From: Eledone cirrhosa
Lineage: Eukaryota
Length of the DNA: 64,000 nucleotides
Direction of reading: 5' to 3'
Assembly (NCBI GenBank): GCA_964016885.1
Contig: OZ024747.1
Coordinates: 88,412,001 to 88,476,000, forward strand
Position numbers and translations under genes: made by a program. Positions 12,553 through 50,560 of the stretch are shown here, one piece after another. The stretch's first letter is position 1. Every line of letters begins with the position of its first letter. The notes under the pieces are model-generated. The model had not been told where the DNA came from and searched no databases. It saw only the letters and a list, made by a program, of their open reading frames with translations.

Positions 12553-12742
12553 ACACAAACACTCCATCTCAATTCTACTTTTGAAAAGTACAAGAACTGC
12601 GAAATCGGTAAAGGAACCAAATAAATATATCTTTTTTAAAAAAGACTTCAGTTGCATTTTCGATTTCACCTTTTTTCCTTATACTTTCACTCGTGTAGGA
12701 CACCTAGTTTTTTTCATTTTGTAAAAACACCTCACTTTGTAA

Positions 12743-12829
<87 letters not shown>

Positions 12830-13519
12830 TCTTCTGTATAATCAGGGTAGAGTATCTGCAGATTTCTCATTAGTTCTGCATAAATATTCTCCTTTTCGCT
12901 AATCTTTGATATATTGCCATCTGCTGGACAGCTAACTTCCACTACTGTGCATGCCTTCTTTTCCCTGTCCCATATTATAATATTTGGTCTGTTATACCTG
13001 CATTTTATTGGTGTTTTTACTGGAACATTCCACCAGTACTCTTTCATATTATGTATATGTATGTCTTCCACATTGCTGTAGCTTTTAATGTGTTTATTAT
13101 CGGGGCTATCTTTTCTATGGATTGCATTGTACAGTTTTTTTGGCCACTACATCATGCCTCATAGGTAGATAGTACCGCAATGAGATCTTTGGACAGCTGC
13201 TTATGACATGGGTGACATCTTCGATGTTAATTCTGCAGAGTCTGCACTTGTTATCACATCTAGGTGTTTTGCTTGCATCCCTATCTCTTTTGTGAATCAG
13301 GTATTTCGTGTTGATTTCCTGTTCTTGGATTGCAAAAGCATATCCTTCAAAGTGGGAGCCAATATAGCGGTTGTTGGTCCAAGATAGACTATTTTCTTTA
13401 TCTATATTACTTTCACTCTGGAGCTTCCTGGCAACATATCCATGCATGATTTTTTGCTGATAAGCATGCAGTTTTTGATCCATGGATTCACTGAGATACT
13501 GCCGAGCAACTTCCCTGGG
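12830..13519 (-). mobile_element. R4/Dong-clade (R2 superfamily) non-LTR retrotransposon fragment: CCHC knuckle plus restriction-like endonuclease
   Basis: AIQEQEINTKY...CRLCRINIEDVTHVISSC...RHDVVA (ORF 13115-13483), then YWWN...[23 protein letters not shown]...EKENIY (ORF 12679-13071). Frameshifted; bounded by (GT)n and (GTAT)n. Confidence 0.88.
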
Positions 13520-13769
13520 TGTGTATGTATGTATGTATGTATGTATGTATGTATGTATGTATGTATGTATGTATGTATGTATGTATGTATGTATGTATGT
13601 ATGTATATGTATAATATATATGTAGAACTAGAATTTAGCTTCGAGCACATCTGTATACAAGGATGTATTGGAATTTCGTATTTTTTAAAAATACGGCATG
13701 TTTATAAATAAACATTTAGAAAGCCGTAGCTATGTAAAATCACTGGCGGCTATCACCATATATATATAC

Positions 13770-18025: not shown

Positions 18026-18069
18026 AATGGATGGCGTAGACATTAGTAAGTGACATAGTAAGTGACATT

Positions 18070-18524
18070 AGTAAGTGACATAGTCACTACTTTACAACAA
18101 TAGCGTAAGGTCTTCAAAATGCTTTTAATTAAGCATACAGTGTATTGCAAAATACACTATATATTCATTCATATATATATCGCTATTTCAGAGCACCAAT
18201 TCTAATTTTCAATTTTTGCTGGACCGGCAACCGCTCTGTATAATCAGTTCCTGATTATTACTGGAATTCTATAAGAATCCAACATTCATAATTTTCAACA
18301 AACAAGGGGAGTGCTAAGCTCTGAGGAATACCAACACATGAAACAGAGATCTGTCAGCTTATCTCCCTTTGTTTGTTGAAAAAAGAAGTAAGTGACATAG
18401 TCACTACTTTAAAACAATAGCGTAAGGTCTTCGAAATGCTTTTAATTAAGCATACAGTGTATGTATTGCAAAATACACTATATATACATTCATATATATA
18501 TATATCGCTATTTCAGAGCACCAA

Positions 18525-18530
<6 letters not shown>
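18070..18530 (+). mobile_element. Retrozyme-like element copy 1 (317-bp monomer, ~1.4 units)
   Basis: Direct repeats 18070-18205 and 18387-18530 (period 317) enclose a hammerhead; the element is flanked by (TA)n. Homolog at 50180-50520. Confidence 0.78.
18315..18361 (+). ncRNA. Type I hammerhead ribozyme
   Basis: TAAGCT-CTGAGGA-ataccaacacat-GAAAC-AGAGATCT-GTC^AGCTTA. Perfect 6-bp helix I extended by a ~19-bp outer stem (18292-18311 / 18362-18382); helix III ACAG/CTGT; GUC site at 18355. Helix II is weak or mutated. Confidence 0.75.
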
Positions 18531-19590: not shown

Positions 19591-19679
19591 ACACGTACAT
19601 ATATATGTTGTTATATTTGGGGAGGGTCAAGTTTCAACAATACCTGTTTCAACACTGATTTCATATAAAAACCTTGCAA

Positions 19680-22630
<2,951 letters not shown>

Positions 22631-36695: not shown

Positions 36696-36744
<49 letters not shown>

Positions 36745-36868
36745 GTATATATATATGTGTATATGTATATATATATGTGTATATGTATATATATATATGT
36801 GTGTGTATATATATATGTATATATATATATGGCTATATATATATATATGTATATATATATGCATACAT

Positions 36869-36902
<34 letters not shown>

Positions 36903-36906
36903 ATGT
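36486..36906. repeat. (TA)n/(TATG)n microsatellite
   Basis: Direct read. Confidence 0.97.
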
Positions 36907-37941
36907 GTTGTTATACTTGGGGAGGGTCATATTTGTGTAATATTGCCAGAATTAATAACAGAACACACTTACTGTTTGGTTGGTTTTCGCTTTTCGCTTC
37001 TGTGTCTTTTATATCGGTAATCTAATTTATTCGGTCCTCAATGTTGCCATTGACTGCCCAACGGTCAAAATAATACAGATACAATATAGACACAAACACA
37101 TATATATAGTTTATCAAAGTTCTTTCGTTGCACATCTGCAACATCGGCAGTGGTGCTATTGTTTCCTCCCGTTACAATGTATGTCTACATATATGTGTAT
37201 ATATATATATATATGTATAGATATATATGTATATATATATATCTATATATATATATGTATATATATATTTAAAGGTTAAACAAGGTTCAATGAATAAATG
37301 AAAGAATAAAGTTTTCCAATAGATTAGAAGCACTCCATAGAAATGGTTTTATTCATTCACAAAGCTATGCCCAAATGTATATTTATTTATTTTTATATAT
37401 TTTTGCATCATCTAATAATACGCTATTTATCCACGAGAATACAAATCTCCCTCCCTATGCTTTATACTATAAAAATTATTCTTCCATGTCTCTCTATCCT
37501 TAATCAATTTTCTTTTGCTTTAGTGCATAAGATATTTCTATACTTCTAGTAACTATCCTTTTCCTCATCTGTTTCTCTCTCTGTCTTTCTTCTTTCTTCA
37601 ATAATTTAAATTATTTGAATCTCTAACAGTTGTGAAAATTCCTATTATATAAGTTAGCTGGTTATTATTATGTATTTTTATAAGCTTTCTCACAGGCACC
37701 ATCTGTATTATATGTAATTTTTTCATGTCTCAATCTTAAGGTATATAAATATTGAGTTTTGTCATATCTTATTCACTGCCATGACTGAATTTTAACCATC
37801 TACTTAGTCAGGGTATGTCATGCATCATCTTATTTTATCTGATGAGGACGTACTGTTGCAGATAGCTCAGTACCTCTGAAATATGTATAATAAAATGTAC
37901 TTGATCACACGAATGTCTATTTTTGTTAATATTTTGAATTA

Positions 37942-49271: not shown

Positions 49272-49440
49272 TTTGGAAACTCTCGTTCGTAGAATCGAGA
49301 CGTCTCTGTCTGAGGACCTTGCGATTTCAGAGTCAGGTTCGATCATTACATCGATCGTGCCTCAAACTGGTCCCCAGAGAAACGATTGTAATATATCTAA
49401 TAAATTTTATTCGTCGCAACACTGATTCTCCGTTTCTTAT
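49272..49440 (+). mobile_element. Penelope-pLTR-like hammerhead element, copy 2
   Basis: CTGAGGA 49310-49316, GAAAC-gatt-GTA 49379-49390, then AATAAA; homologous to 26020-26180. Confidence 0.75.
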
Positions 49441-49537: not shown

Positions 49538-50143
49538 TGTCAGGTCACCAGTTGGTGCTACTGGTAACATGTATTCCAGTACAACCTGTCCCATGGTCGG
49601 ATCGTTGGCGACTAAACTGGCAACCCCACCAACGTTTCTTGGTGAGGAGGGTGACTTTGGACATCTTGCAGGACTAAAAACAAAACCTGTCAAAGGGCAA
49701 AGGAGCTCTTAAGAGTCAATGGCCATCCAAAATCACCGGGAGAGATGACCTCTTAGCCTTTGTCAAGGCAGAATTCTAGAAGGAAAACTCTGATATAACA
49801 CCTGCAACCCTGATGGTATCCAATGATGTTGACTTGTTCTTCTTTTTGGTAAATATCATCTTGGTTAAGAGAGTGGGACTGGCTTTGTGCAGTGCCTTTG
49901 CTCACTATAAAAGCTTCATGGCACAGGCATTGCTTTATATCTAGAGATCTCACTGCACTTGTCGTCACATGGTACCAAGGGCCCAGCACTATGTGTCAAT
50001 AATTGTCACAAGTGTAGTGTTTGTACCAGAGTTTTCAAGTCGCTGGCTGGACTAAAATGTCACACTCGTTCAGCGCATCGGTAAGGGTTCTCCTACATGC
50101 ATATAAAGTAGTGGCCGTACTCGAAAACGAGTTGGCAGCCACC
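49538..50143 (+). mobile_element. Bipartite (internally deleted) RTE element with a 28-bp TSD
   Basis: TSD ATATGTATGTAAAAGGTAAACAATATAT at 49510-49537 and 50144-50171. RTE 5'UTR-type motif TAGAAGGAAAACTCTGAT. Terminal C2H2 finger CHKCSVCTRVFKSLAGLKCHTRSAHR* (50004-50084). Short 3' tail. Confidence 0.85.
49539..49620 (+). ncRNA. Degenerate HDV-like ribozyme candidate at the RTE 5' end
   Basis: P2 CCAGT/ACTGG, P3 ACA/TGT, GG then P4 TCG/CGA, and J4/2 CTAA occur in the correct order. P1 is imperfect and L3 is short. Confidence 0.45.
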
Positions 50144-50179
50144 ATATGTATGTAAAAGGTAAACAATATATATATATAT

Positions 50180-50514
50180 AAACATACAGCATATTATCAA
50201 ATATACTATACATACATCGGTATTTCAGAGCACTAATTCCTAATTTTTGCTGGACCGGCAACAACTCTGCTTAATCAGCTCCTGAACATTACTGGAATTC
50301 TATAAGGATCCAACTTCTATAAGTCTCGGCAGAAGCGAAAGGATATGCAATCTTGATAGCCGCTAACGAGCGAGAAACAGTTGTCGGCTGTTTTCCTTTG
50401 TTTTCGCCGAGACTAAGTAAGTGACATAGTCACCACTTTAAAACTCATAGCGAATGGTCTTCAAAATGTTTTAAAATAAACATAAAGTATATTATCAAAT
50501 ATACTATACATACA

Positions 50515-50520
<6 letters not shown>
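50180..50520 (+). mobile_element. Retrozyme-like element copy 2 (~298-bp monomer, different permutation)
   Basis: Shares TATTTCAGAGCAC, TTTTTGCTGGACCGGCAAC, ACTGGAATTCTATAAG and AGTAAGTGACATAGTCAC with 18070-18530. Terminal direct repeat AAACATA..ATATTATCAAATATACTATACATACAT at 50180 and 50478. Decayed hammerhead CTAACGA..GAAAC agtt GTC (50363-50385). Confidence 0.78.

Positions 50521-50560
<40 letters not shown>

Follow-up and report, generated by a model that had tools for sequence, protein, structure and literature searches.

Both the element type discussed here, the metazoan non-LTR retrozyme, and the replacement of the hammerhead core pair C3-G8 by U3-A8 are already published, the latter from Schistosoma Penelope-like elements (PLEs) and elsewhere. 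Positions 3 and 8 of the hammerhead form a tertiary Watson-Crick pair (PMC3088659), and U3-A8 is a natural variant that was reported to be active in vitro (PMC3088659; PMC4209133). As a U.U mismatch at 10.1/11.1 is documented in print (PMC3088659; PMC7229834), the pair at the base of helix II is conserved, not absolute. For PLEs, inverted arms, tails, partial tandems and microsatellite targets were described as characteristic marks (10.1101/2021.04.23.441226), and a zinc-finger-like linker marks the Neptune or Nematis type (PMC8557442). A PLE partner was proposed for vertebrate retrozymes, and cleavage was seen in one of nine Xenopus dimers (Li et al.; 10.64898/2026.07.22.740005).

The locus considered here lies at 50 kb in a window of 64,000 nucleotides from Eledone cirrhosa (contig OZ024747.1), which holds a related copy at 18 kb; positions refer to this window unless another locus is named. 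The 50-kb copy belongs to a distinct subfamily, B, of an approximately 318-nt non-LTR retrozyme-like repeat, and in itself it is an ordinary decayed insertion. The family, its unit and subfamilies, a hammerhead consensus on the plus strand, covariation, two core-pair switches and an insertion anatomy of the Penelope type are observed. Judged from the sequence, it is very probable that the repeat is a non-LTR retrozyme, whose source copies are selected for a folded, self-cutting RNA and which a PLE-type enzyme inserts into (TA)n. The evidence presented below supports the original prediction in its main point, namely that the source elements were selected as folded single-stranded molecules. Against the retrozyme reading speak the missing 10.1-11.1 pair in subfamily B, Rfam scores below threshold, monomer folds other than the active one, the rarity of long arrays, the absence of truncations at the cleavage site and the lack of a significant pair in the plain unbiased alignment.

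In the genome searched (3.0 Gb) a pattern of two flanking motifs gave 3,742 matches and the reversed pattern none, so that the family stands beyond chance. The first 100 listed places on contig C1, corresponding to 97 distinct cassettes, served as an unbiased sample. The subfamilies form a ladder, the period being 316 nt in B, 318 nt in A and 319 nt in C, and the B lineage accounts for 331 exact core-pattern matches. In subfamily B the motifs follow the order helix I, TTGATAA, a 14-nt helix II, GAAA, a 6-nt palindrome, TC and helix I. The unit is non-coding, low in GC and within the 150-450 bp given for retrozymes, carries one type I hammerhead and occurs in high copy number. Concerning tandems with at least two complete hammerheads, two full units were present in 9 of 85 unbiased insertions and three in none; four same-strand cores spaced by about 320 nt occur at G000:C1:90804904-90805946. 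For the comparative analyses 57 of 182 cassettes were dropped as they contain no full unit, and 76 of the 125 full units were used, i.e., all 50 unbiased ones and 26 of 75 picked by similarity; L174, which was misparsed, was removed from the structure-anchored covariation test and the tree. L112, L162 and related copies represent a C-lineage subfamily in which an additional A separates helix II from the GAAA box. A literature search covering listings and passages of openly accessible main texts found no publication on the family.

The 18-kb copy (18070-18530, plus strand) belongs to subfamily A and consists of a 5'-truncated piece and a full unit from 18180, set within (TA)n, with a C3-G8 core (18321-18327), a 26-nt tail (18505-18530) and a private 2-nt deletion in helix II. 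At its 5' junction three short repeats of the same 10-13 nt (18042-18080) resemble template slippage at the start of insertion. The original prediction had regarded the 50-kb copy as a mutated form of this type. An alignment of the best 30 relatives of each copy instead resolved two clean groups; the two copies share 74% identity over 340 bases, and the 50-kb copy is a member of a separate subfamily with an intact U3-A8 core. Its identity to the B majority is 89.8%, the median for B being 95.6%.

At 50 kb a short (TA)n run (50166-50179) precedes the insertion, which begins with a 5'-truncated piece of the plus strand (50178-50216), the last approximately 40 nt of a preceding unit (95% identity to 50476-50515) in partial tandem with the single full subfamily-B unit (50217-50518, plus strand). 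This unit has a period of 298 nt, compared with the mode of 316 in B, has lost 6 nt near 50231 and is shortened at the junction; a longer (TA)n run (50519-50551, no strand assigned) forms the 3' end. The locus contains no tail, inverted arm or second complete hammerhead unit, and no ORF of 110 aa lies within the unit. A circle of one period folds with a z-score of -3.7 relative to 40 shuffles. Directly upstream, a separate high-copy repeat of about 610 nt (49538-50148; 40 scored matches, 97% identity) is flanked by a repeated stretch of about 27 nt, is set in TATG/TA microsatellites elsewhere, belongs to no Rfam family and has one copy inside a retrozyme at L047. Further upstream (49280-49420), CTGAGGA, a later GAAAC and an AT-rich end may represent the decayed end of another PLE; on inspection no clear hammerhead fold was found in this segment.

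The hammerhead sits at the tip of a long plus-strand stem (50323-50413) with outer arms at 50323-50330 and 50406-50413; position numbering and cleavage site follow the established hammerhead consensus. The 5' arm of helix I (50345-50352) is followed by core positions 3-9, TTGATAG (50353-50359), in which U3 and A8 are a subfamily trait and the change of A9 to G is private. Helix II (50360-50373) has a C.A apposition at 10.1/11.1, and the segment 50374-50385 comprises the GAAA box, the two-pair helix III with its loop and UC, with cleavage predicted after 50385. The helix III loop, palindromic in subfamily B, carries one private change at 50381, and the 3' arm of helix I (50386-50393) is weakened by changes at 50388 (none of 29 other B loci) and 50391 (1 of 29). 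The boxes YUGANRA, GAAA and NUH together with the 3-8 pair are present in subfamily B and in the family, and the 50-kb copy departs from them at A9G.

This assignment corrects the initial reading of the ribozyme in several respects. CTAACGA (50363-50369), formerly taken for a mutated core, is the inner part of helix II with its loop, and helix II, described as nearly absent, has four pairs, CGCU/AGCG, round a 4-nt loop. The AGCC/GGCT pairing had been equated with helix I; the true homologue of AAGCT/AGCTT in the 18-kb copy is 50345-50352 paired with 50386-50393, and AGCC at 50358-50361 represents core positions 8-9 and the start of helix II. An extended pairing, AGCCG/CGGCT, forms in the predicted minimum-energy fold of the 50-kb copy, beating helix I. 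It is a private misfold, as it rests on two changes, A>G at 50359 and T>C at 50388, each absent from the 29 other subfamily-B loci. The combination was found in one of five genome-wide matches, the 50-kb copy itself, and the idea of a sublineage marked by A9G and U1.3C and selected for the alternative helix was rejected on this count. The conclusion that this copy is probably inactive is likely right, on grounds other than those first given: A9 of the hammerhead pairs with G12, and predicted folds give helix I a probability of 0.01 in the 50-kb copy, compared with 0.99 for pair 2.3-1.3 in the intact locus L003. The copy is thus probably dead through A9G and the breaks in helix I.

The compensated pairs reported between the two copies were confirmed by direct reading. 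In the outer stem, four pairs are compensated between GTCTCGGC (50323-50330) with GCCGAGAC (50406-50413) and TTTTCAAC (18292-18299) with GTTGAAAA (18375-18382). Each of the two plus-strand 3' hairpins (50466-50505), ATGTTT/AAACAT (50466-50483) and AGTATATT/AATATACT (50486-50505), contains one compensated pair relative to the 18-kb copy and to subfamilies A and C. Both hairpin changes are single events on the tree, splitting the family 40/29 and 38/33, and neither is significant alone, one having E=39 over all pairs and the other lying outside the top 40.

Genome-wide, U3-A8 was counted 2,878 times, C3-G8 1,550 times, U3-G8 54 times and C3-A8 64 times, with controls at 0, so that 4,428 of 4,546 cores (97.4%) are paired at 3-8 and 118 are mixed. 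In the unbiased sample (95 of 97 cassettes parsed) the corresponding counts were 53, 37, 0 and 2, with three others. Since copies are not independent, switch events were counted on a tree derived from 207 flank columns, ribozyme columns being excluded. This flank-only tree needs two 3-8 changes, and a single U3-A8 clade is rejected (p-AU 6.3e-6); support is 100/96 for the C lineage and 84/88 for the B lineage (bootstrap not settled), with the C3-G8 subfamilies between them. In each switch both positions change on a single branch, the two branches carrying 11 and 22 changes over 300 columns. This twofold exchange between C-G and U-A is likely a sign of selection on folded RNA. A U3.G8 core is common to five similar copies at three loci (G000:C1:47998782, C2:83744022-83745194 and C4:295997246), which may represent an intermediate or a tolerated wobble.

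Covariation was assessed by an R-scape-like G-test against a null distribution obtained by simulation on the tree. In the structure-anchored set of 75 units, whose alignment was fitted to the structure and is enriched in B copies, 2.1:1.1 ranks first and 3:8 second of all pairs (E 0 and 0.08). Of 25 proposed pairs, 8 reach E<=0.05; besides 2.1:1.1 and 3:8 these comprise three pairs of helix II, two of the outer stem and one of helix III. The plain MAFFT alignment of 76 rows is again led by 2.1:1.1 and 3:8 (E 0 and 1). The covariation therefore involves the ribozyme junction, these two pairs topping all column pairs in both the 75- and the 76-row sets, and the refuting condition attached to the original prediction did not come true. 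The expected significance holds strongly for the structure-anchored alignment and more weakly for plain unbiased sequences: among 50 unbiased rows no pair was significant over all pairs, the best being 2.1:1.1 with E 0.25 and 3:8 falling outside the top 12. The signal covers the outer stem, helices I-III and the tertiary 3-8 pair; it shows clearly in ranks and event counts but only modestly in single pairs. It backs three helices with helix I open, again more weakly on the plain unbiased alignment.

Compensatory change might also arise in DNA, by arm-to-arm conversion, template switching at hairpins or selection on single-stranded cDNA, with no working ribozyme. Such processes could cover the simple hairpins and the outer stem; moreover, folding energy does not tell the strand, reverse complements being as stable as the sense sequence, and many non-pairing columns covary too because the subfamilies form a ladder. 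Some of the C lineage has the 3-8 pair within an inverted repeat of 4 bp that arose by chance. In the B lineage, however, positions 3 and 8 are outside any inverted repeat and yet switch together, on the branch of 11 changes, and the unpaired hammerhead boxes stay fixed while the helices turn over. G.U cells outnumber A.C cells on the plus strand (113 versus 30 of 1,575, cells that are not independent). As the covariation reaches the ribozyme junction, hairpin conversion is no explanation for it, and an origin purely in DNA appears very unlikely.

At the base of helix II, subfamily C has G-C, subfamilies A and D have A-U or U.U, and the B lineage has A.A and then C.A; the states among 75 rows are G-C 31, A-U 15, C.A 13, U.U 6 and A.A 4. 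A paired 10.1-11.1 position, usually G-C, is present in A and C and missing from the B lineage, and the literature search described above, with the same coverage, retrieved no C.A or A.A variant. The B ribozyme might be crippled and the subfamily spread passively, its RNA processed in trans or left uncut, with the other subfamilies active. The C.A or A.A apposition runs through the whole lineage (331 matches), only U.U is described as a tolerated 10.1/11.1 mismatch in the accessible text of the sources (PMC3088659; PMC7229834), predicted monomer folds close the core, helix III is tiny and the lineage is the smallest. Nevertheless, one helix II pair still changes in a compensated manner within B (U-A in 15, C-G in 10, unpaired in 3 and unparsed in 2 of 30 loci), 2.1:1.1 switches from U-A to C-G inside the lineage, and 2 of 30 loci preserve the palindrome of helix III in an alternative form. 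A crippled B ribozyme is compatible with the rest of the retrozyme reading, and we consider it unlikely.

Every subfamily parsed has a palindromic helix III, perfectly or nearly so. That of subfamily B, two pairs with a self-complementary loop, has a predicted probability of 0.01 in the monomer (L003 and L005) and fits the double-hammerhead model of PMC4209133. Predicted monomer folds do not favor the active form, and C-lineage copies take alternative folds; pairing of the 5' arm of helix I with helix III in C-lineage monomers is a possible lock against monomer cleavage. At the gathering score, Rfam identified no hammerhead in the window, the 50-kb copy included, and at E<=10 the matches round the 50-kb locus were microsatellite-driven. 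Of seven loci tested with the Rfam hammerhead models, three gave a sub-threshold HH9 match, none of them B, and the two B loci gave none.

The insertions bear the marks known from PLEs: a partial tandem, an inverted 5'-truncated arm, a tail at one end (27-28 nt in 69 of 113, where 30-40 nt is typical of PLEs) and a microsatellite target. Among 85 unbiased insertions, 57 had an inverted arm, 50 a tail, 81 a 3' partial piece and 77 (TA)n at an end. The arms diverge in 116 of 118 two-strand insertions, and these 116 have a tail at one end in 85 cases and at both ends in 6. No peak of 5' truncation was present at the cleavage site (none of 229 ends within 3 nt, in a distribution biased by locus choice). 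The genome thus retains no trace of cut linear templates, and copying ran through the site, as it would on a circular template or on tandem RNA left uncut.

According to the retrozyme reading, tandem or read-through transcripts would cut themselves after C17; those of subfamily B would probably do so as double hammerheads, since its helix III consists of two pairs with a palindromic loop. The unit-length RNA would be ligated into a circle, on which a (TA)n-targeting GIY-YIG/RT enzyme may prime at the AU-rich junction and copy more than one unit, leaving a truncated piece and a full unit, often with an inverted second arm and a tail of about 27 nt. If only ribozyme-competent source copies amplify, founders would keep their pairs, and inserted copies such as that at 50 kb would decay.

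The unit might instead be the solo pseudo-LTR (pLTR) of an autonomous PLE yet to be found, cut and copied within a long RNA without a free circle. The tail, inversion and (TA)n anatomy would be the same, PLE pLTRs carry type I hammerheads including U3-A8 forms (PMC4209133), and retrozymes were proposed to derive from pLTRs (10.64898/2026.07.22.740005). Yet what precedes a full unit is a piece from the 3' terminus of the same repeat (period 316-319), inspection of 62 5' flanks revealed no common upstream sequence, and the one autonomous family examined has a different hammerhead without alignable similarity. A solo pLTR is accordingly a quite improbable origin.

This autonomous family is an abundant element of Neptune/Nematis build, with a 1,257-aa frame comprising RT, a zinc-finger-like linker and GIY-YIG. 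In the Atlas the frame has RT/HTH_animal/GIY-YIG clusters as neighbours (0.96-0.98). Searched over its full length, it matched no Pfam family, and a PDB search gave a weak GIY-YIG match (E 0.52), so the call of an RT is based on these neighbours and on known motifs. A near full-length copy (L210:1018-4791, minus strand) includes the frame, an inverted 5' arm and a minimal hammerhead, different from that of the retrozyme, in a pLTR that does not align to the retrozyme; tails in this family measure 54-59 nt. No retrozyme piece was found at 11 loci of the Neptune-like family, and the retrozyme unit shows neither an RT plus GIY-YIG ORF nor an upstream frame shared with that family. Fragments of Neptune-like 3' ends lie in the window at 36724-37188 (minus strand) and 19596-19920 (83-88% identity to loci L059, L078 and L105), and a remnant of a non-LTR retrotransposon frame at 12679-13627 (minus strand) matches zf-RVT weakly (E 0.008).

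At L105 (263-1231) and L087 (1449-2119), C-lineage retrozyme pieces are fused to 5'-truncated copies of the Neptune-like PLE on the same strand, without a TA spacer and with junctions at short microhomologies; the L087 junction is 3 nt from the predicted hammerhead cleavage site of the PLE. Tails at both ends occur in both fusions but in no more than 6 of the 116 pure insertions, which makes a later insertion accompanied by a target deletion as plausible as a single event. The literature search, of the same scope, found no retrozyme-PLE chimera. The two fusions suggest a candidate for the enzyme in the proposed movement of retrozymes by PLEs. The family further adds a dense ribozyme record from one genome, with two 3-8 switches, five 10.1/11.1 states and turnover of the helix III palindrome, which argues that cleavage-competent RNA is what is amplified, and its natural variants are ready-made for assay. 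It is a tentative and rather doubtful combination that the family is a natural mutagenesis series (two 3-8 switches, U3.G8 as a possible surviving intermediate, and B cleaving without a 10.1-11.1 pair, with A.A and then C.A) and that L087 and L105 are also single reverse-transcription events that name the retrozyme-moving enzyme.

By the criteria applied to sequence, the repeat is a metazoan non-LTR retrozyme (PMC7229834; 10.64898/2026.07.22.740005), in agreement with the retrozyme-like label first given to it. Like the elements described in PMC7229834, it has a short (316-319 nt), low-GC, non-coding unit with a type I hammerhead, no LTR, PBS or PPT was seen, and it has thousands of copies and a stable predicted circle; in the axolotl HHR_Amex2 (PMC7229834), as in subfamily B, helix III has two pairs and a tetraloop and the base of helix II is mismatched. 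Unlike these retrozymes, the octopus family mostly occurs as one or two units with inverted arms and a tail and without long arrays, and it combines both 3-8 pair types with C.A and A.A at 10.1/11.1 (PMC7229834). It shares U3-A8 covariation and the U10.1.U11.1 mismatch with the natural core variants of Perreault et al. (2011; PMC3088659), the accessible text of which does not mention C.A or A.A at 10.1/11.1 and describes no repeated switch within one family. As in the Schistosoma Cercyon PLE hammerheads (Cervera and de la Pena, 2014; PMC4209133), U3-A8 replaces C3-G8, and PLE hammerheads likewise show palindromic 15.2-16.2 and loop 3, a dimer model and abundant compensatory changes (PMC4209133). 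Those hammerheads, however, are minimal pLTR motifs that have one additional base behind position 9 and conserve G10.1-C11.1 (PMC4209133), whereas the octopus family has canonical spacing, a long helix I and a stand-alone unit. Vertebrate retrozymes align to pLTRs (Li, Clavereau and Pollet, 2026; 10.64898/2026.07.22.740005), whereas here no similarity to the one PLE family tested was found and the PLE link rests on insertion anatomy; the many monomeric copies and the co-occurrence with EN+ PLEs are common to both (10.64898/2026.07.22.740005).
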